Shown one piece after another: positions 612 through 58,939 of a stretch of 64,000 bases of DNA (position 1 is its first letter; every line of letters begins with the position of its first letter). Location: assembly GCA_017513085.1 (NCBI GenBank), contig JAFWDK010000016.1, positions 60,766 through 124,765 on the forward strand. Direction: 5' to 3'. Under the pieces are notes generated by a model. It was not told the origin of the DNA. It worked only from the letters and a program-made list of their open reading frames with translations, and searched no databases. The stretch is from Clostridiales bacterium. Its GTDB lineage: Bacteria; Bacillota; Clostridia; Saccharofermentanales; Saccharofermentanaceae. A program made the position numbers and the translations under genes.

Positions 612-1100
612 TTATACTAGTTTCAGTTTTACGTCTACCGACTCGTCATCGCCGATGGTCAATATCGCGTAGCCGCCGCGCCTCAGTGCGCCTCCGTTAA
701 TAAACCGGATCCCCTCTTCCGTCTCGTCCACGGCACAGTGAGTATGCCCGTACACCACGATGTCGCAGTGCTTTTCGCGCGCGGTAACGGCAAGGAGCGA
801 ATAGCTCGGGCCATGAAAAAGATGCCCATGCGTAAGGAATACCCGATGTGTTTCCGAGATCGGGAAAGCCAGGACCGGTGGCAATTGCGAAGCGGTATGA
901 GTATAAATATCGCAGTTTCCGCAAACCATATACAATTCAAATTTATGGTTTTCTTTGCGTATCACATCCTCGACCTCATGCGTCTCCATCTGAAGATCGC
1001 CGGCAATGATAACGCCATCCAGCGGAGATTCCTGCATGACCACATAGCGTAGGTTTTCTTCCCGTCCGTGTATATCCGAACAAATCAGATATTTCTTCAT
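612..1100 (-). CDS. Metallophosphoesterase, YfcE/Vps29 (calcineurin-like) family
   Basis: Motifs SDIHG, AGD, GNCD, THGH, GHTH. ATG at 1100 lies 10 nt after the radical SAM stop. Confidence 0.85.
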   Translation of the reverse strand: MKKYLICSDIHGREENLRYVVMQESPLDGVIIAGDLQMETHEVEDVIRKENHKFELYMVCGNCDIYTHTASQLPPVLAFPISETHRVFLTHGHLFHGPSYSLLAVTAREKHCDIVVYGHTHCAVDETEEGIRFINGGALRRGGYAILTIGDDESVDVKLKLV

Positions 1101-1110
1101 AGGATACACC

Positions 1111-2205
1111 TCACTCCTTATACATACGCTCCATAAATCGCGGATTCTCAGCTGAAAGAAGGTTTTGAGCCGCCTGATCCGCAAGTTCGATAGTCAACTT
1201 CTCATATTCACACTGCAACGCGGAAACCAAAGACATTGAACCTGTATGTCCATGATTCGCGCAGGCACACATATGGCGGCAACGCGGGCGAAGCACGCAC
1301 TCCGAGCAGTTTTTTTCTTCGATACGCTGCGATTCCAAAGAAGAAAGCTTCTTCTCATCAATGCCTGTTTCCAGGTCACCGACCAGGAAATCATCCCTAC
1401 CGATAAAATGCGTGCACGGATAAAACTTTCCGTCCACATCCACCATCATCTTATGTCCGCCGAAATGGCAAAGGCGGTTATCCGCGTCTCTTCCACGGAT
1501 ATAATTTCTGATCTTGTTTTCGAAAGGAAGAAACCGGAAAATATCATCTCCCCGATTCCATTTCTCATATAGTTTCTCCACTTTTTCCAGTTCCCGCCTA
1601 AGGACAGAAAACCTCTCCTCGGTCCAATCAACACGTTCTCCATGAGCCGGAACCAGGCTTACCGAGCGCACACCCTTTTCCCTGAAGAAGCAAATAGAAT
1701 CCGCAATCTTATCCGCATGATCCGGATGCACCGTCATCATAATGATCGTTTCCGGGAAAACACGGAGCAACATCTCCAGTTTTCTGTCGACCACTTCGGA
1801 AGTAGTCCTTCCGCCACGGTCAACACGAGAAAGATCCTGCGCCAATCCATCGTGTGAAAGTGCCAGCAGGATATGATTCTTCTTGGCAAAAGCAAGAAAC
1901 TCTTCGTCCAGCAAGAGTCCATTGGTCGTGATCTCGAAGGTGACTTTCATACCGGAGATCGTTCGTGTTTTCTGCTGTGCGTACTGAACCAGAAACTCGA
2001 TCTCTTTCCGGGCCAGAAGCGGTTCTCCTCCATAAAAGGATATCTGCGCGCTTCCTGTCAACAAGTTATCGATGGCCCGCATCGCTGTTTCTATTGGCAT
2101 ATACTTGTCCTCATGTTTCTGAAGACAATACCTGCAATCAAAATTACACTGGTGAGTCATCACCAGTGTAAGTCTTTGCATCTTCATAGATCCTTGATCC
2201 TTCAT
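1111..2205 (-). CDS. Radical SAM/SPASM domain protein (putative peptide or protein maturase)
   Basis: CNFDCRYC (CxxxCxxC), FYGGEPLL, TTNG, SHDG. C-terminal SPASM: C...VDVDGKFYPC...CSECxxxxxCxxxCAC...C. Start chosen at MKDQ after AAGGAA. Confidence 0.9.
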   Translation of the reverse strand: MKDQGSMKMQRLTLVMTHQCNFDCRYCLQKHEDKYMPIETAMRAIDNLLTGSAQISFYGGEPLLARKEIEFLVQYAQQKTRTISGMKVTFEITTNGLLLDEEFLAFAKKNHILLALSHDGLAQDLSRVDRGGRTTSEVVDRKLEMLLRVFPETIIMMTVHPDHADKIADSICFFREKGVRSVSLVPAHGERVDWTEERFSVLRRELEKVEKLYEKWNRGDDIFRFLPFENKIRNYIRGRDADNRLCHFGGHKMMVDVDGKFYPCTHFIGRDDFLVGDLETGIDEKKLSSLESQRIEEKNCSECVLRPRCRHMCACANHGHTGSMSLVSALQCEYEKLTIELADQAAQNLLSAENPRFMERMYKE

Positions 2206-2236
2206 TCGTATTTCCTTTTCCGTACCTGCAGACAGC

Positions 2237-2638
2237 TTATGAATCTGTCGTATCGTCTGACTCACATGTCTCGCAAGGAATTTCGCCTTCGATCATGCAA
2301 TCGTCTGACGGTTCGGTCTCGATCGTTTCTTCGCCCATCAAGACTTCTGTTTCATCTGTCGGCTCAGTCGTAATTTGAACAACATCGCCATCAATCACCA
2401 TTTCTGTTGTTTCAAAACCGCCGAAATCCAATCCGTTCGCCATTCCACCCAAAAATCCCTTTGTTCTGCCGTTTCCTTCCGAAGTTTTGTCACCACATCC
2501 CGTAGCCAGTGACATGGTCGCTGCCAGAGCAGTAACGGCAGCAATCTTTGTTACCGCTGACACCTTGGAAAAATGCTTGACCTGTTCCAATGTCGGATAT
2601 CCGGGATTCACATTGTTTTTGATCGGCGACTGTTTCAT
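2237..2638 (-). CDS. Small acidic lipoprotein-like protein with repeated [IL]xG[DE] motifs; putative radical SAM substrate
   Basis: AGGAGG RBS; N-terminal PIK...PGYP extension; hydrophobic helix ending LATGC (lipobox-like); repeats VIDGDV, VLMGEE, MIEGEI in an E/T/D-rich tail. Confidence 0.7.
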   Translation of the reverse strand: MKQSPIKNNVNPGYPTLEQVKHFSKVSAVTKIAAVTALAATMSLATGCGDKTSEGNGRTKGFLGGMANGLDFGGFETTEMVIDGDVVQITTEPTDETEVLMGEETIETEPSDDCMIEGEIPCETCESDDTTDS

Positions 2639-2667
2639 ATTCTTGTCCTCCTGATTTCTCTTTCATA

Positions 2668-2700
2668 TATTAGACGAGAAAAAAGAGTGTTTTGTTGCAA
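2668..2700 (-). promoter_or_regulatory. ECF-sigma-type promoter, copy 1
   Basis: Minus strand TTGCAAC-N17-CGTCTAATA, 30 nt upstream of the ATG at 2638. Confidence 0.7.
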
Positions 2701-2807: not shown

Positions 2808-3563
2808 TCAGTGTTTCGATTTTATCTGTATCGCCGTACCGGCGCCGATCAGTGCCGCCCATATGAAAAAGGACACCCAGACATTTTCGCACCCTTGCTT
2901 CACAACCGGATCCAGGAAGGACGGGAGTTTCTCCCACGAATACAGAAGTCCTGCCGTCGTCACGAAAGCATCGCGGATAATGTCCGCGCCGATTACGGCA
3001 GTGATCACTTTAATGGCCGGCTCCTGAAGTATGCAGATCAGAATGCCCACCAGGATACCGATCACCGCAGCGATCAGGCAGATCGCTAAGAATTTCTCCC
3101 ACTCGGTATTGCCCGGAATATAGGACATCAAAGACGAGATCTGTTTATCCGAGATCAGACTCTGACTGGCTTCCGAAGCCTCTGTCAGTTTCGCCACGGA
3201 GTTCGGGGAAAAGGTAATGAAAAGATTCAAGTTTGCCTGCGTCTTCACAATATACAGAACAAACACTTTCATGATCGTATACCAGGTGAAAAAGAAAGAA
3301 ACAAAGAACAGTGCTTTTTTATAGATCGCATAAGAAAGAAGCCCTAGAAGCACGCCCAGAACGATAGGGAAAGCCATACTCCAGATCTCTTGAAACTCTT
3401 TCGGGATCTTCTCGAGAAGAAAGGCCGTGTCCAGAATATTGCCCAACTGGATACCCATAAAGAATCCGGCAACGGCCATAGAAAACCGGAAGAGCCGAAA
3501 CCCCAGAAAGCAAAGCAGTATGCCCAGTATGAAAGCGGCGATCAATAAGAGATTGTCGATCAC
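2808..3563 (-). CDS. Polytopic membrane protein, DUF4203/TMEM198-like
   Basis: N-terminal GILLCFLGFRLFR...GF.MG pattern and about 6 hydrophobic segments; GGGAGG RBS. Confidence 0.6.
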   Translation of the reverse strand: MIDNLLLIAAFILGILLCFLGFRLFRFSMAVAGFFMGIQLGNILDTAFLLEKIPKEFQEIWSMAFPIVLGVLLGLLSYAIYKKALFFVSFFFTWYTIMKVFVLYIVKTQANLNLFITFSPNSVAKLTEASEASQSLISDKQISSLMSYIPGNTEWEKFLAICLIAAVIGILVGILICILQEPAIKVITAVIGADIIRDAFVTTAGLLYSWEKLPSFLDPVVKQGCENVWVSFFIWAALIGAGTAIQIKSKH

Positions 3564-3744
3564 GTGCGCCTATCCTCCCAATTCTATTGTTGACTTTTAT
3601 TATAGTATGCGTTCCTTTTTCCAAATGTAACAAAACGTTTTCAATTGCCCGACACTTTTACTTAAAATTGCCTTGCGATTATCGTTTGACTTTGCGAAAA
3701 TAGATACAGTACTTCGATTTTAAGAAGATTGGGAGGTTTGAATT

Positions 3745-5574
3745 ATGCTTTACGATAACAAGATCTGGGTAGGCGGCACCACAAATAAGTGCTTTATTGA
3801 GCCATCTAAGGCAAATCGTCATGGTCTCATTGCCGGTGCGACCGGTACAGGCAAATCCGTGACGCTCAAAGTCCTGGCTGAGAGTTTCTCGGATATGGGG
3901 GTTCCTGTTTTTCTGGCAGATGTAAAAGGTGATATGTCCGGTATCTGCTGCCCTGGTGTTTCCAATGATAATATGACGTCACGCATCGCGAAATTCGGAA
4001 TCGAGAATTTCGAATATAAAGCATATCCGACCGCTTTCTATGACGTTTTCGGACAGTTGGGCATCCCGCTTCGCACCACTGTTTCAGAACTTGGTCCGAT
4101 CCTTCTCGGACGTATGCTTGGTCTTTCTGATGTGCAGCGCGCCGTGATGTCCATGGTATTCCGTATTGCTGACGATCAGCAGCTCCTGCTCTATGATCTC
4201 AAGGACCTTCGTCTCCTTCTGACATATATCGGTGATCACGCCAGTGAGTACAAGCTCACATACGGCAATATCTCTACTGCTACCATCGGTGCCATCCAGA
4301 GAAATCTGGCTCTGCTTTCCGATGAGGGTGCAGAAGCGTTCTTCCAGGAACCGGCCTTCGATATTATGGACTTTGTAAAGACAGATATTAACGGACGCGG
4401 CATGATCAACGTTCTCAACGCGACCCAGTTGTTCAACAAGCCTCTTCTCTACTCGACATTTATGCTGTGGCTCTTGAGCGAGCTTTATGAGAATATGCCG
4501 GAAGTCGGTGATCTGGACAAGCCGAAGATGGTATTCTTCTTCGATGAGGCCCATCTGCTCTTTAATGAAGCACCTGCTTTCCTGATCGAAAAGGTCGACC
4601 AGATCGTTCGTCTGATCCGTTCCAAGGGCATCGGCATTTACTTTATCTCCCAGAGCCCAAGCGATATTCCGGATTCGATCCTTGCCCAGCTTCAGAACCG
4701 TATTCAGCATGCACTTCGTGCCTATACACCTGCTGAGCAGAAGAAACTTAAAGCCGCTGCAGAGTCTTTCCGTGCCAACCCTGGTTTCGACACAGAAGCT
4801 GCGCTCTCCGAGCTGGCTGTCGGCGAGGCACTCGTTTCTCTTCTGGATGCCAAGGGTACTCCGGGCATCGTAGAGCGTGCTTTCATTCTCCCGCCTCAGA
4901 GCTTCATCGGTTCTGCCGGAGATGAGAATATTCTGAAACTTACTCAGCTGAATCCGTTGTACGCGAAGTATAAAGATCCGGTCGATCCGGAATCCGCTTA
5001 TGAAATCCTGATGCGTAAATATGATCCGAATTATGGTGCACAGGCAGCACCTGTTGCTCCGGCCGCTGATTCCGTTTCGGCTTCCGGCGCACCGGTAGCC
5101 GTAGCACCTGTCTTTGACGCAGCGTCTGAAACTGCTCCTGCAGCAGCCCCTGTAGCTGCAGCGGCCGCCGCACCTGTAGCAGCAGCAACCACCGCACCTG
5201 CCGCCGTGGCAGCAGATGCCAAGGCAGCGGAGAAAGCACGTGCTGCAGAGATCCGCGATCAGCGTGAAGCAGACCGTCAGGAAGACCGTGAGCGCCGCAT
5301 CGAAGAAAGAGAGCGTGCTGCGGAGATCCGTGAACAGCGTGAAAGAGACCGCCAGGAAGACCGTGAGCGTCGTGAACTGGAGCGTCAGCAGAAGGCTGAA
5401 GAAAAAGCCCGCAAGGAAGCAGAGCGTGCAGAAGCCAAGGCAAAGGCCGAAGCTGAGCGTGCAAAGAAGAACAGTCCTGTAACCAAGATGGTCAACTCTG
5501 CCACTACCGCAGCAGGCCGTCAGATCGGTTCTTCCTTGATCCGTGGTATCTTCGGAAGCTTGCTGAAGAAGTAA
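3745..5574 (+). CDS. HerA-like P-loop ATPase, DUF853/YjgR family
   Basis: ANRHGLIAGATGTGKS, DVKGD, FFFDEAHLLF, LIRSKGIG, QHALRAYTP, C-terminal IRGIFGSL. Confidence 0.9.
   Translation: MLYDNKIWVGGTTNKCFIEPSKANRHGLIAGATGTGKSVTLKVLAESFSDMGVPVFLADVKGDMSGICCPGVSNDNMTSRIAKFGIENFEYKAYPTAFYDVFGQLGIPLRTTVSELGPILLGRMLGLSDVQRAVMSMVFRIADDQQLLLYDLKDLRLLLTYIGDHASEYKLTYGNISTATIGAIQRNLALLSDEGAEAFFQEPAFDIMDFVKTDINGRGMINVLNATQLFNKPLLYSTFMLWLLSELYENMPEVGDLDKPKMVFFFDEAHLLFNEAPAFLIEKVDQIVRLIRSKGIGIYFISQSPSDIPDSILAQLQNRIQHALRAYTPAEQKKLKAAAESFRANPGFDTEAALSELAVGEALVSLLDAKGTPGIVERAFILPPQSFIGSAGDENILKLTQLNPLYAKYKDPVDPESAYEILMRKYDPNYGAQAAPVAPAADSVSASGAPVAVAPVFDAASETAPAAAPVAAAAAAPVAAATTAPAAVAADAKAAEKARAAEIRDQREADRQEDRERRIEERERAAEIREQRERDRQEDRERRELERQQKAEEKARKEAERAEAKAKAEAERAKKNSPVTKMVNSATTAAGRQIGSSLIRGIFGSLLKK
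5239..5373 (+). repeat. Intragenic imperfect 60-nt duplication, 75-nt period
   Basis: RAAEIRDQREADRQEDRERR at 5239 and RAAEIREQRERDRQEDRERR at 5314. Confidence 0.8.
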
Positions 5575-6723: not shown

Positions 6724-8208
6724 TTATTTGTTGTAGAGTTTCTTCTTCATGTACTCCGGCTCACAAGTAATGTTGATGCCGAGCTTTCGGAATACATTCT
6801 CGTCCACGCTCGACAAGATCGTTGTCGAGTGCGCATCACTGTGGCGCAGATTATTGATCTGCTGCATCGCCAGTTCCGCTACCGGGTTCGTCGCCGCACT
6901 CATGGCCAGAGCGATCAAAACCTCATCGGTATGCAGTCTCGGGTTACGGTTACCCATATGGTTCACCTTCAGATCCTGGATCGGCTCGATAACATTTGGA
7001 GAAATCAACGGGATCTCGTGCTGGATACCGGCCAGTGCTTTGAGCGCATTAAGAAGTGCTGCAGCGGAAGCACCGAGTAATTCTGTATTCTTTCCGGTCA
7101 CGATCGTGCCGTCCGGAAGTTCCAGCGCGACCGCCGGACCGTGTGTAGATTCTGCTCGAACCATGGCTGCGCCGACGACGCGACGGTCATTGGTCTCGAT
7201 GCCGGATTTATTCATAAGAAGCTCGATCTTATTTACGTCACTGCCGTCGGAAAGGCCCTGGCGGACTGCGCACTTAGCCTGATAGTAACGGCGGATGATC
7301 TCCTGCTTGCTGGCCTCGCGGCATGCCTCATCGTCCTCGATCGCAAAACCTGCCATATTTACGCCCATGTCTGTAGGGCTCTTGTACGGGGACTCGCCGT
7401 AGATTTTCTCGAAGATCGCGTTCACGACCGGGAAGATCTCCACGTCACGGTTATAGTTGACCGTCGTTTCACCATACGCTTCAAGATGGAAAGGATCGAT
7501 CATGTTGACATCGGCGAGGTCTGCGGTTGCTGCTTCATAAGCAATATTGACCGGATGATTGAGCGGGATGCTCCAGATCGGGAAAGTCTCGAACTTCGCA
7601 TAGCCGGCCTTCACGCCACGGCGGTTCTCGTGATACAGCTGGGAAAGGCATGTCGCCATCTTTCCGGAACCCGGGCCCGGCGCCGTTACGACCACGAGGG
7701 AACGTGATGTCTCGATATATTCATTCTTGCCATAACCTTCGTCACTTACGATCAGCGGGACATTGGTCGGGTAACCGGCGATCGGGTAGTGCTTGTAGAC
7801 CTTGACACCCAGCTGTCTGAGACGCTTGCCGAAATGCTCGGCCAGAGGCTGGTTCGTATATTGTGTTATCGCTACGGATCCGACATAAAGCCCGATCTCG
7901 GTAAAAGCATCGATCAGGCGGAGCACTTCCTGATCGTAAGTGATGCCCAGATCACCACGGCGCTTATTCTTCTCGATCGCATCGGCATTGATTGCGATCA
8001 CGATCTCCACATCATCCTTAAGTTCAAGGAGCATCTTGACCTTACTATCCGGATGGAAGCCCGGAAGTACGCGAGAAGCATGGTAATCGTCAAAAAGCTT
8101 TCCGCCAAACTCAAGATACAGTTTTCCACCGAATTGACCGATACGGTCCCGGATCTTCTGCGACTGCATCTGCACATATTTATCGTTATTAAAGCCTACT
8201 TTAAACAT
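6724..8208 (-). CDS. DUF1846 (UPF0371) family protein
   Basis: [54 protein letters not shown]. Confidence 0.9.
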
Positions 8209-8354
8209 ACATCTCACGCCCCTTGTCATAAAAGAAAAGAGCTTCTCGCGAATAATCTTGAGAAGCTCGTCAGCCTTTTTAACGGCTCTTTGCAATTATA
8301 ACACATTTTGATATGCTGTCTACATAACAAACCGTCAAAAAGGAGTACTTTTTT

Positions 8355-8822
8355 ATGCGTTTTCTGATTCAAAGAGTTACCTCTGCCAAAGTAGATGTCG
8401 AGGGTAAGACCGTGGGGTCCATAGATCGCGGATTTCTCGTATTTATAGGCGTTTGCGCCACTGACACCAAGGAGATTGCGCTGGCCATGGTCAAGAAACT
8501 CCTTGGACTTCGCATCTTCCGTGACGAGAACGACAAGACCAATCTGAGCCTGGCCGACGTCAACGGAAGTCTCCTTCTCATCTCCCAGTTCACACTCTAT
8601 GCAGACTGCCATCACGGCAACCGTCCCTCGTTTATCAACGCGAGCAAGCCCGACCTGGCTAATTCTCTTTATGAGTACATCATCGAGCTCTGCCGAAGCG
8701 AGGTACATACTGTGGAGACCGGCATCTTCGGTGCAGACATGGCCGTATCGATCGAAAACGAAGGACCGTTCACGATCTGGCTCGACAGCGAAGAGATTTT
8801 GCGTAAAAATTCTCGGAACTAG
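8355..8822 (+). CDS. dtd: D-aminoacyl-tRNA deacylase
   Basis: QRV, LRIF, SQFTL, GNRPSF, FGADM and N-x-GP-x-T motifs. Confidence 0.95.
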   Translation: MRFLIQRVTSAKVDVEGKTVGSIDRGFLVFIGVCATDTKEIALAMVKKLLGLRIFRDENDKTNLSLADVNGSLLLISQFTLYADCHHGNRPSFINASKPDLANSLYEYIIELCRSEVHTVETGIFGADMAVSIENEGPFTIWLDSEEILRKNSRN

Positions 8823-13424: not shown

Positions 13425-14729
13425 TTATACGTTCTCGACAGTTCCCAAGAATACAGGAAGTCCGGTTTCTTTATCCACGACCGCATAGGCGAAAGGACGG
13501 TCACAGATCACTTTTTTGACATTATCAGGCTCTTCCCTCACACACTCATCTGTCATCACCACAGCCGTGGCAGCTGCTGCAGATGTGCCATTCCGGTTCA
13601 CATCAATGAAAGTCTTGTGGATCACTTTCGAGATACACGGATTGGAAGTTGCCATATTGCTAAAATCCGCCTTTCTCTCATCAAAAGCATCCTCCATGCC
13701 CATGTCATACAAGATCCTTGCCAGTTGCACATCATACTCGCTCTTAAATTCCGGCATACTTGTGGTAACTTCGAATTCCTCACTTCTGCTCTCCCAGAAA
13801 GTCCAGTACTCTTCTGGTGTCATGTTGGCGATGAATTCATTGATGTCCATGGCCGTATCATTCGGAAGGATCGTCAGGAAAGCATACTTTCCGTCGTCGT
13901 AGTCCTTGAGGAAGCCGGTTGCTTTTTCATTCTGAAGATAGACCGACTCCTTACCGTGGATAAACATGACTTCTCTCTTCTGACCATCTCCACCTGTGAA
14001 GACCTGTGTCCAGACATCATCATCCGAATATCCGTTCTTCCACTTTCCGTCAAAAGACACCGCATTGACAAGAACCATAAGGTCATCGGGAGTTAATTCG
14101 TCCAGAAGATCCGTGATACGGCCATTGGTCTTTTCTGCCACCCATTTGTTAATAGCACTAACACCCTCGGGGCCAAATGCAACAGCCTTGGAGCCGGCAT
14201 CAAAGTTCTTCTCTATATACTCCAGATAATCCTGGTACACACGAGCTGTCTTACTCTCGTTGATCCAAACAGAATTGGCGATCTTCAGAGAATCATTCTT
14301 TAATCTGTTCATTCTTTCGACCGCAAATCGCAACGCCTCATAATTATCCGCGCCCGGAACCATCGTCTGCGTCATCTGTGCAAGCGTCTCACCATCTGCT
14401 CCACATGCCGCCATTTCCAATGCAAACAAGATCGAGTCTGCCGAGATCATCATATTCTTATTTTTGGCCAGACCGGCACAATTCTTCATGACGCCAAATA
14501 CAAACTGTGAATAAGCCTTTTTGAGTTCCTCGTCACTCATTGCCTTTTTCCCGGATTGCAGATTTTTCAGCTCAAAAAGCGCCTGCTTGCCGTTCTCTCT
14601 TTTTACCGCACCGGCCATGGCCGATACAGCAGGCTCCTGTGAAGCAGGGGTTTCCACATTCTTTTTGCATCCTGTCGGCAAAGCCATCAGCATTCCCGCA
14701 ATCAATAATCCTGCTACTATTTTTTTCAT
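13425..14729 (-). CDS. Serpin (serine protease inhibitor), predicted lipoprotein
   Basis: Signal peptide ending LPTGC; NMMIS, GADGET, IANSVW, INKWVAEKTNGRI, VNAVSFDGKW, hinge GTSAAAATAV, DRPF...FLGTV. Confidence 0.93.
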   Translation of the reverse strand: MKKIVAGLLIAGMLMALPTGCKKNVETPASQEPAVSAMAGAVKRENGKQALFELKNLQSGKKAMSDEELKKAYSQFVFGVMKNCAGLAKNKNMMISADSILFALEMAACGADGETLAQMTQTMVPGADNYEALRFAVERMNRLKNDSLKIANSVWINESKTARVYQDYLEYIEKNFDAGSKAVAFGPEGVSAINKWVAEKTNGRITDLLDELTPDDLMVLVNAVSFDGKWKNGYSDDDVWTQVFTGGDGQKREVMFIHGKESVYLQNEKATGFLKDYDDGKYAFLTILPNDTAMDINEFIANMTPEEYWTFWESRSEEFEVTTSMPEFKSEYDVQLARILYDMGMEDAFDERKADFSNMATSNPCISKVIHKTFIDVNRNGTSAAAATAVVMTDECVREEPDNVKKVICDRPFAYAVVDKETGLPVFLGTVENV

Positions 14730-14804: not shown

Positions 14805-14837
14805 TATTAGACGAGACAGATTTCCGTTCTGTTGCAA
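14805..14837 (-). promoter_or_regulatory. ECF-sigma-type promoter, copy 2
   Basis: Minus strand TTGCAAC-N17-CGTCTAATA upstream of the serpin gene. Confidence 0.7.
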
Positions 14838-14911: not shown

Positions 14912-15613
14912 ATGAAGACAAGATACGATTGTTTGATCATTGACGATGAGCAGGTGCTCGCAGACAACACATGCGAGTACTTTAATATGTTTGAAGTAAA
15001 GACGAAGGCAGTCTACAGCAAGGCGGAAGCCCTTGCATTTTTAGAAGAAAATGATGTTTCCCTGATCCTTCTGGATATCAACCTTGGTGACGGCAGCGGC
15101 TTCGAGCTCTGCAAGCACCTCCGTCAGACCGTGAATATTCCGATCCTTTTCGTTTCCGCAAGAAATACAGATGACGACAAGATCATCGCACTCAATATCG
15201 GTGGCGACGATTATATTGAGAAACCATATTCCCTCGGCGTCATGCTGGCCAAGGTAAAAGTCATGCTCCGTCGTTTCTCTCCGGCTGAAGAAAAGAGCGT
15301 TCCTTCTGTTTTCGAAGATGGTTCCCTGAAGATCGATATGCAGAACAAGATCGTGTCCGTGGGCGGCGAGACGAAGCGTCTCACGAGTATGGAGTACTCG
15401 CTTCTTTGTTATCTTGTGGAGAACAAAAACCGTCTCATCACGAAGGCAGAGCTTTTCGATAATGTATGGAAAGATAAGTTCACTTCCGATGGCACACTGA
15501 ATGTGCATATCCGGAAATTAAGAGAAGCCATCGAGGAGGACCCGAAGAATCCGGTCCGCATCCAGACAGTATGGAAAGAGGGATATAAATACGTCACAGG
15601 GGGCGGCAAATGA
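14912..15613 (+). CDS. OmpR-family response regulator
   Basis: IIDDE, LLDINL, GGDDYIEKP, winged helix NVHIRKLREAIE...GY. Confidence 0.93.
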   Translation: MKTRYDCLIIDDEQVLADNTCEYFNMFEVKTKAVYSKAEALAFLEENDVSLILLDINLGDGSGFELCKHLRQTVNIPILFVSARNTDDDKIIALNIGGDDYIEKPYSLGVMLAKVKVMLRRFSPAEEKSVPSVFEDGSLKIDMQNKIVSVGGETKRLTSMEYSLLCYLVENKNRLITKAELFDNVWKDKFTSDGTLNVHIRKLREAIEEDPKNPVRIQTVWKEGYKYVTGGGK

Positions 15614-16860
15614 GAAAAAATCTCTTCATCTTTCTCATCATTCTCACCTTCCTGATCGAGGGTGCGGCCAGCCTGTTTTTTCTTCTGAAGACGCGGAACA
15701 CCGAGCAGGACACCGTCCTGATCAACGATTGTGTTAAGACTCTGGAAGAAAACTTCGGGCATGAAGAGAACTACTCGGACAAACTGACATATTCCGTCAT
15801 CGATCTTGACGGAAAACTTCTCTATTCAAACCGGGAAGGCGTCTCCACCACGGTCAACGAAGCCATCAAGAACAATGACACGATCCTGGACTTCTATCAG
15901 AACGGCGAGGTCGCCGGGAAAGTGCTTTTCCGGAATGAAACGCAGAAACAGATCCGGAACTGGCAGCGCTCGATCGCCGTCACGGTGCTTGTATGTACGC
16001 TGGTGCAGGCGTTGCTGCTGATTTCCTATGCGCTGTATCTTCGAAAGACCATTATCCGACCGTTTGAAGATCTGTCGCATTTTGCCGAACGGGTCGCCGG
16101 CGGGGATCTTGAAGTGCCGCTCGACATGGATAAAGGACACACTTTCGGAAGTTTCACCGAAGCTTTTGACCTGATGCGTACGGAACTTCGGAAATCCCGC
16201 GCTGCGGAAAAAGCAGCCTACGATGCCAAGAAAGAAATGGTCGCGCAGCTGTCCCACGACATCAAGACACCGGTCGCTTCCATCAAGTCCGCCTCCGAAT
16301 TCGGCTACGAACTGGCCAAGGAAGAGAAGGTCAAGGAGCGCTTCAACCTCATCAATTTCAAAGCTGATGAGTTGACAGTCCTGGTGGATAATCTCTTTGT
16401 CGAGAGCGTCAAGGATGCATCCGAGATCAAGGTCAGCCCGAGAGAAAACGATTCGGAAACTGTGCGGGAAGCGATCCTTCATGCGGATTATCTGAATCGT
16501 GCCGGCGATTTTACGATTCCGGAATGCAAAGTCTTTACCGATAAACTCCGCCTGCAGCAGGCATTCGATAATGTATTTATCAATTCCTACAAGTACGCAG
16601 ACACGAAGATCGAAGTCAGCGCAAAACTGGAAGACGGGTATCTCAAGGTAACCGTGCGGGATTTCGGTCCGGGCGTTACCGACGAAGAAGTCGCCGTCCT
16701 GAAAGAAAAGTATAAGCGCGGCGCCAACAGCGAAGGCAAAGAAGGAGCCGGCATCGGTCTGTACCTCACTTCCTATTTCCTGAAAGAAATGGATGGCGAG
16801 ATCTATGTCACGAATGAGGACCCCGGGCTTGCCGTTCTCTTTCTGATCCGCACGGTTTGA
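15610..16860 (+). CDS. Sensor histidine kinase (2 TM, HAMP)
   Basis: H box LSHDIKTP, N box NSYKY, DFGPG, GAGIGL; ATGA overlap with the regulator. Confidence 0.93.
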   Translation: MRKNLFIFLIILTFLIEGAASLFFLLKTRNTEQDTVLINDCVKTLEENFGHEENYSDKLTYSVIDLDGKLLYSNREGVSTTVNEAIKNNDTILDFYQNGEVAGKVLFRNETQKQIRNWQRSIAVTVLVCTLVQALLLISYALYLRKTIIRPFEDLSHFAERVAGGDLEVPLDMDKGHTFGSFTEAFDLMRTELRKSRAAEKAAYDAKKEMVAQLSHDIKTPVASIKSASEFGYELAKEEKVKERFNLINFKADELTVLVDNLFVESVKDASEIKVSPRENDSETVREAILHADYLNRAGDFTIPECKVFTDKLRLQQAFDNVFINSYKYADTKIEVSAKLEDGYLKVTVRDFGPGVTDEEVAVLKEKYKRGANSEGKEGAGIGLYLTSYFLKEMDGEIYVTNEDPGLAVLFLIRTV

Positions 16861-58217: not shown

Positions 58218-58844
58218 TCAGTCGATGCTCACCGGAGCGCTTTTCGCATCCTTCGGCTTAACGATCTCCAGATCTACCATCGAATCGACCTGCCCTTCTA
58301 CTGTTGCAAAAACGAATGTGTACTTGCCGGATGGCATATCTGCCGGAAGGCGGCCCTGCATCCAATAGACATGGATCGTGTTATAATCCTGATCCACGAT
58401 CGGGTGGCAGCTTGATCCGGTGATCTTTACGATAGCATCTTCCTTATTCCATGCATAATCTTCGTTATACGCGAATACGTAAAGCAACAGTTCATTCGGT
58501 GCATCTTCATCTCTGGCCTCGCTGATGATCGGTTCCACTGTCAGTTCCGATCCGCTGACAAGCTCAGAATACAACTGCCAGTTGATTACTGTATATACAC
58601 TTCTGATATCTGAAATAATCGGCCTTTCCACACTCTTGGATGCCATCAGACCTCTCTCGCCGACCTTCGATGTGTCCGGATCTCCGAAGAGGTCCGGAGC
58701 CTTTGTGGGCGCCGTTGCCCCCACAGAAGTGGACTGCGCGTTTACCGCGATCTTGGAAGTCTTCACGGAAGGTGCAGCTTTTCCACAAGCACTGAAAGCC
58801 ATTGTCATTGTTAAAACCATAATTGCCATTGTTCTCTTTTTCAT
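58218..58844 (-). CDS. Hypothetical lipoprotein, apparent paralogue of 40640-41230
   Basis: AGGAGA RBS, FSAC lipobox; LLLYVFAYNEDYAWNK, SGKYTFVF. Confidence 0.75.
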   Translation of the reverse strand: MKKRTMAIMVLTMTMAFSACGKAAPSVKTSKIAVNAQSTSVGATAPTKAPDLFGDPDTSKVGERGLMASKSVERPIISDIRSVYTVINWQLYSELVSGSELTVEPIISEARDEDAPNELLLYVFAYNEDYAWNKEDAIVKITGSSCHPIVDQDYNTIHVYWMQGRLPADMPSGKYTFVFATVEGQVDSMVDLEIVKPKDAKSAPVSID

Positions 58845-58906: not shown

Positions 58907-58939
58907 TATTAGACGAAGCCAAAAACGATTCCGTTGCAA
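58907..58939 (-). promoter_or_regulatory. ECF-sigma-type promoter, copy 4
   Basis: Minus strand TTGCAAC-N17-CGTCTAATA. Confidence 0.7.

Follow-up and report, generated by a model that had tools for sequence, protein, structure and literature searches.

A radical SAM/SPASM enzyme and its conserved lipoprotein-like partner in Clostridia: a candidate enzyme-substrate cassette with a putative recognition tag in the signal peptide

The locus that is described here is located in a 64,000-nucleotide stretch of DNA (contig JAFWDK010000016.1, positions 60,766 to 124,765), called "the window" below, from a Clostridia bacterium of the rumen or gut. The minus strand of the window carries three genes in the following order: a gene for a lipoprotein precursor, a gene for a radical S-adenosylmethionine (SAM) enzyme of the SPASM type, and a gene for a YfcE-type phosphodiesterase. 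An earlier note, made from the sequence alone, had described three co-oriented genes with gaps of 31 and 10 nucleotides, lying between a promoter of the extracytoplasmic function (ECF) type and a terminator, and had proposed that the enzyme modifies the product of the first gene. The open reading frames (ORFs) and the gaps have all been found as described, with 31 nucleotides between the precursor and enzyme genes and 10 nucleotides between the enzyme and phosphodiesterase genes, and the terminator corresponds to a 14-pair hairpin at 575-608. Here, we have compared this locus with its relatives, and we consider it probable that the precursor and enzyme genes make up an enzyme-substrate cassette, in which a tag on the precursor docks on the enzyme, the tail of the precursor is modified before export, and the product is displayed as a lipoprotein. 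The features of the locus, in window coordinates and with the evidence for each, are as follows:

2670..2699, minus strand: ECF-sigma-type promoter, consisting of TGCAAC (2699-2694), a 17-nucleotide spacer and CGTCTAA (2676-2670); the motif is kept across loci
2647..2652, minus strand: ribosome-binding site AGGAGG, 8 nucleotides ahead of the ATG at 2638; from the sequence itself
2237-2638, minus strand: the small ORF as a whole, 133 residues; from the ORF reading
2558..2638, minus strand: precursor residues 1-27, an extended cytoplasmic n-region with the tag, putative leader; from the alignment, the codons and the complex model
2495..2557, minus strand: precursor residues 28-48, the hydrophobic (h-) region of the signal peptide and the lipobox L-A-T-G-C, with Cys48; from the alignment
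2240..2494, minus strand: precursor residues 49-133, the acidic mature part, probably disordered; from motif counts and a low predicted local distance difference test (pLDDT) score
1111..2205, minus strand: radical SAM/SPASM enzyme without a RiPP recognition element (RRE; RiPP, a peptide made by the ribosome and modified after translation), 364 residues, ATG at 2205; from Pfam, AlphaFold2 (AF2) and Foldseek
612..1100, minus strand: YfcE-type metallophosphoesterase, 162 residues; from TIGR00040
575..608, no strand: hairpin of 14 pairs between two convergent genes, likely a bidirectional terminator; from the sequence

Our comparison has covered 51 loci with 1.5-kb flanks from one bacterial order, with enzyme identities of 32-100%. 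In all 51 of them, the enzyme gene is closely preceded by a lipoprotein-like gene in the same orientation, and several loci have two such genes in tandem. The partner proteins share one layout: the N-terminal stretch contains an aromatic residue and is followed by a hydrophobic segment, then by a lipobox-like Cys, and lastly by a mature part with [LI]-x-G motifs. The proposal of an undescribed radical SAM/SPASM system with a conserved small lipoprotein-like neighbour has thus held, and the comparison of homologue neighbourhoods that had been suggested along with it has found the aromatic tag, the lipobox-like Cys and the [LI]-x-G motifs upstream of the enzyme gene at each of the 51 loci. The partners can be arranged by their tags: group A has the tag P-x-Y-P-T and group B the tag x-x-Y-P-[ST], while in group C the stretch KKPLYA abuts the h-region, often in two tandem genes, with Phe replacing Tyr in one locus. 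The partners of group D (loci L059-L062) are lipoproteins of 263-283 residues that combine a P[HK]YPTK tag with a globular domain that has no family match; they carry a single, invariant LELDGYD/LDLDGYD, and their enzyme is a paralogue with about 32% identity. An enzyme homologue occurs in 93 of the 300 genomes of the order and in 22 of the 23 genomes of the genus; by family, homologues are found in 90 of 141 genomes of one family and in 2 of the 158 genomes of the order's other three families. The phosphodiesterase gene is present at one of the 51 loci only, which rules out a three-gene system; this part of the earlier note has not stood, and the conserved cassette consists of the first two genes.

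The precursor starts with MKQSPIKNNVNPGYPTLEQV, followed by a hydrophobic stretch that closes in LATG-C (Cys48). The details that had been read from the small protein (the leader, LATG-C, three repeat units, FLGG, DFGG, one Tyr and the absence of YG) are present without exception; the sole Tyr is Tyr14, and YG does not occur. The tag in the n-region follows the pattern K-x-x-P-...-P-x-Y-P-T-L-x-Q-V. In an alignment of 33 precursors, M1, Y14, P15, C48 and G84 are invariant, and P12, T16 and K31 are nearly so. For the conserved Pro, Tyr, Pro and Thr of the tag, 4, 2, 3 and 3 codons are in use, respectively, and this synonymous variation shows that the tag is translated and under selection at the protein level; over the codon positions, differences amount to 5400 at the third position versus 3355 and 3307 at the other two.

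The signal peptide that follows the tag has a hydrophobic h-region and a lipobox, LATG-C48, that agrees with the pattern [LVI][ASTG][GAS]-C, with its Cys being invariant; a lipobox core pattern after PROSITE PS51257 fits 26 of the 29 distinct family members. The Cys is located at residue 45-51 in the family, while four further lipoproteins of the regulon have it at residue 20-22; in the usual signal peptide, with its short n-region, the Cys comes no later than about residue 35. The n-region of these precursors (about 27 residues) is therefore very long, an unusual trait of this family. Display of the mature protein on the surface as a lipoprotein would be expected from the lipobox. As for the fold, the mature part is probably disordered; the precursor has pLDDT values of 46-53 in the complex runs described below and of 0.45 in its Atlas model. 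Searches of Pfam and NCBIfam have found no family for the small protein, and a search of the ESM Atlas has returned scores of 0.81-0.84 only, under the meaningful level. Out of 1.84 billion cluster representatives, a profile of 33 small proteins has picked up only 57 with E <= 1e-3, and the family is narrow and clear-cut.

The promoter is shared as well. In 24 of 30 loci, the motif GCAAC-N17-CGTCT is kept upstream of the small gene despite divergence of the spacer, and the pattern has 132 matches across the genus, in 23 of 23 genomes, versus a single match for the reversed control. In the genome of the window, the strict pattern has six matches, each of them ahead of a gene: an ECF sigma factor, two serpin lipoproteins, a DUF4349 lipoprotein, a 208-residue lipoprotein and the radical SAM/SPASM cassette operon. 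Among the first ORFs behind the pattern in the 30 loci listed (31 distinct ORFs), 26 are lipoprotein-like, comprising 5 small precursors, 5 serpins, 5 DUF4349 proteins, 1 homologue of the 208-residue protein and 10 others, and 2 are sigma factors. This distribution places the cassette in a small, putative, lipoprotein-rich ECF regulon. The promoter had been named as ECF-type in the earlier note, and the conservation of the motif and its occurrence ahead of an ECF sigma gene agree with that assignment; the operon is putatively driven by the ECF sigma factor of its own regulon. A lipoprotein-rich regulon that includes two serpins points to a role at the cell envelope, while protection of the surface against proteases, suggested by the presence of the serpins, is speculative.

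The other members of this putative regulon are located as follows. The ECF sigma gene (locus L041, 1008-1580, plus strand, contig C31; TIGR02937, 108.8 bits) lies behind its own TGCAAC-N17-CGTCTAA and is followed, at 1582-2580 on the same strand of L041, by a gene whose 332-residue product matches no family, has a single membrane segment and is probably the anti-sigma factor. The serpin lipoproteins are encoded in the window at 13425-14729 (minus strand, with the pattern at 14807-14836) and in locus L043 at 3724-5010 (minus strand), with Pfam Serpin scores of 275 and 262 bits; serpin genes behind the promoter pattern recur in other genomes of the genus. The 208-residue lipoprotein, which has no family match, is encoded in the window at 58218-58844 (minus strand, with the pattern at 58909-58938), and the DUF4349 lipoprotein in locus L042 at 745-2106 (plus strand).

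The mature part of the window protein is an acidic tail with three [IL]xG[DE] units, namely IDGD, LMGE and IEGE, next to FLGG and DFGG; it ends in the acidic C-terminal stretch DDCMIEGEIPCETCESDD, with three Cys within the last 20 residues. Taken alone, the window protein provides weak evidence for an enrichment of the motif (three occurrences of [ILVM]xG[DE] versus 0.61 in shuffles, P=0.015), and 14 of the 12,145 ORFs of its genome match its motif density. Over the 29 distinct tails of group A, whose counts are not independent, the proteins being related to one another, the evidence is strong: the strict motif [ILVM]xG[DE] occurs 89 times versus 13.0+-3.4 in shuffled tails, and the broad motif [ILVMFYW]xG[DEGA] 130 times versus 27.8+-4.9 (2000 shuffles, maximum 44). 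The residues around all 229 Gly of the tails, with no motif presupposed, are enriched 6.4x for Leu and 4.3x for Ile at position -2, 5.3x for Tyr at -4, about 2x for Glu/Asp at +1 and 3.1x for Val at +4; Tyr or Trp at -4 is frequent among the relatives. The number of repeats per tail ranges from 2 to 7 across the family, as in precursors that are modified at several sites. At least one Cys is found in 19 of the 29 distinct tails, often 4-5 residues past the last repeat Gly; the other 10 have no Cys beyond the lipobox, and their enzymes retain every invariant residue.

The profile search with the small-protein family has also brought up a set of zinc-ribbon proteins (P0163 and P0168; loci L068, L070, L080 and L089, on metagenome contigs), in which an N-terminal, Cys-rich, zinc-ribbon-like segment is followed by a membrane segment and, in most of these loci, with the exception of L089, by an acidic [LI]xG[DE] tail. 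A gene for a PflA-like radical SAM protein (Pfam Radical_SAM, 58.2 bits) adjoins the zinc-ribbon gene in L068, L070, L080 and L089, that is, in four of the five listed loci with flanks that we have inspected, and the two genes may represent a second, unrelated radical SAM pairing. For P0163, which combines the zinc ribbon with the acidic tail, the 300 genomes of the order contain no match; a metagenome scan has yielded 26 loci, with zero full SPASM homologues and one weak match to a radical SAM core (58 residues, E 1.8e-4).

The enzyme carries the motif CX3CX2C (C20, C24, C27), followed by CX13GX4C and CX2CX5CX3CXC in its SPASM region, where eight Cys (C246, C264, C300, C303, C309, C313, C315 and C332) are invariant in 59 homologues. 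Its radical SAM domain is recognized by Pfam PF04055 (65.1 bits versus 29.5); the SPASM motif set, CX9-15GX4C ... CX2CX5CX3C ... C, is present and invariant, and the Pfam SPASM model reaches only 16.4 bits versus 21.5. The AF2 model of the enzyme has a mean pLDDT of 93.6, and Foldseek places it next to CteB (template modelling (TM) score 0.82), the anaerobic sulfatase-maturating enzyme anSME (0.77) and ChlB (0.75). The first strand of the core begins at residue 10, and matches to RRE-bearing families start at family positions 74-96, which leaves no space for an N-terminal RRE. The earlier reading of CxxxCxxC, eight SPASM Cys and an N-terminus too short for an RRE is therefore confirmed by the motifs, the AF2 model and the match starts.

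A comparison of the enzyme with the NCBIfam radical SAM models, which had been suggested as a check, has reached no curated family. The nearest is PapB (NF047865, 181.6 bits versus a cut-off of 340, with enzymes from three more distant groups at 179-230 bits), followed by the nif11 maturase (157.5 versus 518.7), the SCIFF maturase (TIGR03974, 132.5 versus 425; the precursor is not a six-Cys peptide), QhpD (125.8 versus 453), anSME (TIGR03942, 103.2 versus 349.45), the triceptide enzyme YhhB (51.1 versus 445) and the Bacteroidetes radical SAM/lipoprotein model TIGR04133 (24.7 versus 425). Membership in the PapB, SCIFF, nif11, QhpD, CcpM, anSME, triceptide and TIGR04133 families is ruled out by the curated cut-offs. 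TIGR04134, with a cut-off of 39.8 bits, has zero matches in the genome of the window and passes in the control genome of Bacteroides thetaiotaomicron. Another radical SAM gene of the same genome, on contig C5 at 7610-8596 (plus strand), scores 269.6 bits with TIGR04133, under the cut-off of 425.

The four best of these family matches (PapB, nif11, SCIFF and QhpD) are all to enzymes that form thioethers, and the closest solved structure is that of CteB; these matches raise an alternative, according to which the enzyme is of the ranthipeptide type and links Cys to Asp/Glu by a thioether among the three Cys of DDCMIEGEIPCETCESDD. PapB requires little more than a Cys-Xn-Asp/Glu motif (PMC12715619); the three Cys of the window protein are located in such motifs, and, as noted above, most of the distinct tails contain a Cys. 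On the other hand, the Cys-free tails occur with enzymes that keep all invariant residues, and one Cys per about 95 residues is near the chance expectation. The enzyme also has an eighth SPASM Cys, two residues past CX3C, giving CX2CX5CX3CXC in 50 of 51 loci (the remaining one is truncated at a contig end); CteB has Ala at this position, and PMC10352776 gives the number of SPASM Cys in QhpD, CteB and Tte1186 as seven. With eight SPASM Cys, the open site on an auxiliary cluster where a substrate Cys could bind may be absent. Together with the fact that every family cut-off is missed, these observations make a ranthipeptide-type enzyme unlikely in our view; a Cys-dependent thioether is improbable as the common reaction because of the 10 tails without Cys and the extra invariant Cys of the enzyme, while a thioether at the three C-terminal Cys of the window protein itself is possible.

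In order to model the contact between the two proteins, the complex has been predicted from one alignment for each of the two, and SAM and three 4Fe-4S clusters have been included as ligands. The interface score ipSAE (interaction prediction score from aligned errors) is 0.86, 0.85 and 0.85, versus 0.00 for the best of 3 controls; on a calibration that is only rough for this input, the mark is reached by 58 of 80 solved complexes and by 2 of 110 mismatched pairs. The runs share at least 63% of their contacts, and the pLDDT of the partner is at least 46. On the precursor, the confident interface takes in residues 1-20 and 31-43; on the enzyme, it takes in residues 194-199, 235-238, 297-305 and 326-364. 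In the model, Tyr14, Pro15 and Thr16, which together with Pro12 are the interface positions of least predicted error, pack on residue 236 and on the C-terminal helix of the enzyme, with Tyr14 in contact with enzyme residues 236, 343, 346, 347 and 350; W194, D343, A346 and Y362 of the enzyme are invariant or nearly so. The contacts of the tag are located on the SPASM/C-terminal region; with none to the radical SAM core and with the tail unplaced, the model supports the tag as a docking element and is silent on the site of the chemistry. The P-x-Y-P stretch is thus predicted to be a docking element on the enzyme, in line with the binding of a PxYP leader that had been proposed and with the selection on the tag at the protein level.

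The predicted interface also bears on two alternatives in which the tail is not the substrate. In the first of them, the target is the region of the signal peptide (the n-region with the tag, the Tyr in it, or the Cys of the lipobox), the tail being a generic extracellular module, and the product could be a modified fragment of the signal peptide or an altered N-terminus of the lipoprotein. Every partner, including the group with the globular domain, has the aromatic tag, an h-region and the Cys in common; only residues 1-43 are positioned on the enzyme by the model, and tails of this type are also found without this enzyme. However, the predicted contacts of the tag are on the SPASM/C-terminal surface, with none to the radical SAM core, the positions after the Cys are not conserved between groups, and [LI]xG is kept in every group, down to the invariant LELDGYD/LDLDGYD of the group with the globular domain, so that we regard modification of the signal-peptide region as quite improbable. 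In the second alternative, the small protein would serve as a membrane tether or as a regulator and bring the enzyme to the membrane, and the true substrate would be something else, for instance another lipoprotein of the regulon or a lipid. The prediction of binding for the cytoplasmic N-terminus and the membrane helix only, and the several other lipoproteins of the regulon, would suit a tether; against it, tandem duplicates, fast-evolving tails with a kept motif and tight spacing give the small gene the look of a precursor gene, a cleavable lipobox would free the tether, and four copies of the promoter pattern are still present in the sole genome of the genus that lacks the enzyme. A tether is, of the explanations that we have weighed, the one to which we give the least credence.

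We return to the enzyme-substrate cassette, which we regard as the probable reading, and for which we propose the following sequence of steps. While the precursor is still in the cytoplasm, the P-x-Y-P-T tag would act in the manner of a RiPP leader and, as the model predicts, would dock on the SPASM/C-terminal helices of the RRE-less radical SAM enzyme. The enzyme would then modify the precursor, most likely at the repeated [LI]-x-G-[DE] units of the tail. Export by the Sec pathway, lipidation at Cys48 and cleavage by signal peptidase II, which would discard the tag, may be expected next from the lipobox, and the end product would be a modified, acidic lipoprotein on the cell surface.

Several observations weigh against this reading. 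The complex model has zero contacts with the radical SAM core, and it leaves the acidic tail unplaced. Residues conserved at a level of at least 90% are no more frequent in the interface (7 of 35) than elsewhere in the enzyme (61 of 329; Fisher p=0.82). The calibration of the docking score is rough because our own alignments and ligands have been used, and, as a solved complex of ChlB with its leader exists (9gm3), part of the score may reflect likeness to it. The 51 loci are relatives in one order and not independent, and their counts therefore show conservation within a lineage rather than independent events. Moreover, similar acidic [LI]xG[DE] tails are found on the zinc-ribbon membrane proteins beside an unrelated, small, PflA-like radical SAM enzyme; the tail is therefore not exclusive to the SPASM enzyme and may be a generic extracellular module. 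With regard to the chemistry, the case for epimerisation is drawn from the conserved residues and the extra invariant Cys only.

Radical SAM peptide epimerases act on hydrophobic residues, with a Cys of the enzyme as the hydrogen donor. Leu/Ile and Gly are the best-kept positions of the repeats, and by analogy with these epimerases our first guess, which is a tentative one, is that hydrogen abstraction at the conserved Leu/Ile leads to epimerisation to D-residues; functionalisation or cross-linking of the neighbouring Asp/Glu is our second guess. A cyclophane, to which the Tyr/Trp at position -4 had drawn attention, has been ruled out as the common chemistry, since the repeat units of the window protein contain no aromatic residue. 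The fullest version of the scheme, in which a disposable leader in the signal peptide directs Cys-independent changes at [LI]-x-G, and the displayed tail, under the ECF regulon and alongside the serpins, hardens the surface against proteases, is a possibility that we hold to be doubtful as a whole.

The genes that flank the cassette are not sulfatases, as had been stated before: they encode a C-terminal fragment of LarA, a TM7S3-like membrane protein and a HerA-like ATPase. The gene for the TM7S3/TM198-like membrane protein (2808-3563, minus strand; Pfam, 40.3 bits) is located directly upstream, co-oriented and ahead of the promoter, and is syntenic in 24 of 51 loci, mostly from one genus; we have kept it out of the system because it lies before the promoter. 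At the other end, the phosphodiesterase gene (TIGR00040, 67.8 bits versus a cut-off of 56.25) is probably co-transcribed with the cassette at the window locus, and the 14-pair hairpin is situated just beyond coordinate 612, where it is also used by the convergent LarA-like gene. Contigs from RNA libraries (three runs and a doubtful one, picked together with the window stretch) align at 99% or more with the small gene and with portions of the gene for the enzyme, with carry-over of DNA being possible; one of them extends to 2694, beyond the expected start of the transcript, and, such contigs being unable to show a transcript start, we conclude nothing from them. A tandem DNA repeat, translated as ...SPVIRFR.AG.ITGENE.M.N..., has been seen elsewhere in the genome, on contigs C4 (~15600-16300), C7 (~66600-66900), C14 (~242965) and C15 (~31475).

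The known radical SAM/SPASM maturases act on short secreted peptides and on a few proteins. If the proposed reading is true, the recognition tag lies within a signal peptide and is removed by the ordinary lipoprotein pathway, which would link radical chemistry in the cytoplasm to surface display in a new manner, and a substrate motif without the Cys or aromatic residues of the known classes would be a second novelty. The pair of small genes offers a directly testable route to a new post-translational modification, and the tag, if shown to direct modification, would be a candidate for a portable recognition element for such enzymes.

Lastly, we compare the cassette with the known systems. The anSME family resembles it in being an RRE-less SPASM enzyme of about 370 residues with a similar fold (TM 0.77); anSME works on its substrate, a protein destined for export, in the cytoplasm, and its auxiliary clusters are fully ligated by Cys. 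It differs in family score (103.2 bits versus the cut-off of 349.45) and in the lack of a sulfatase gene near the window locus; a sulfatase-type motif has not been seen in the precursor by eye. The Bacteroidetes system of TIGR04133 and TIGR04134 also consists of a radical SAM/SPASM protein and a putative lipoprotein, but it is unrelated at the family level, given the scores above. PapB, with its precursor PapA (freyrasin), and CteB are the nearest systems in sequence and fold (NF047865, 181.6 bits; CteB, E=9e-28 and TM 0.82), and they share with the cassette an enzyme gene that adjoins the precursor gene and acidic residues in repeated short motifs. However, residues 1-85 of PapB are an RRE according to PMC12715619, whereas the first cluster Cys of the window enzyme is at residue 20, and the alignment of CteB to the window enzyme begins at CteB residue 96; the window enzyme has eight SPASM Cys and not seven, a third of the substrates have no Cys in the tail, and the window precursor is a lipoprotein with a Sec-type signal, while theirs is a short leader-core peptide. 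ChlB and the triceptide synthases are RRE-less SPASM enzymes (TM 0.75) that bind the leader of the precursor directly, as the title of 9gm3 indicates, and the triceptide synthases act at several repeated short motifs (PMC12912966); the window enzyme is far under the cut-offs of these families, and the window repeats hold no aromatic residue. CrpC of Methanococcus voltae is similar in that a SPASM enzyme modifies a neighbouring protein, CrpA, and not a short peptide; it differs in having a predicted RRE, as given by a section heading of PMC13692751, and CrpA is a Cys-rich protein that receives ranthionine cross-links and has no lipoprotein signal. A search of the literature (open-access papers and bioRxiv, without supplements) has found no description of a radical SAM enzyme with a lipoprotein or a signal-peptide leader. 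Set beside these systems, the cassette is best read as an undescribed variant of the enzyme-plus-precursor arrangement, in which an RRE-less SPASM enzyme is dedicated to a lipoprotein that has its tag built into the signal peptide.

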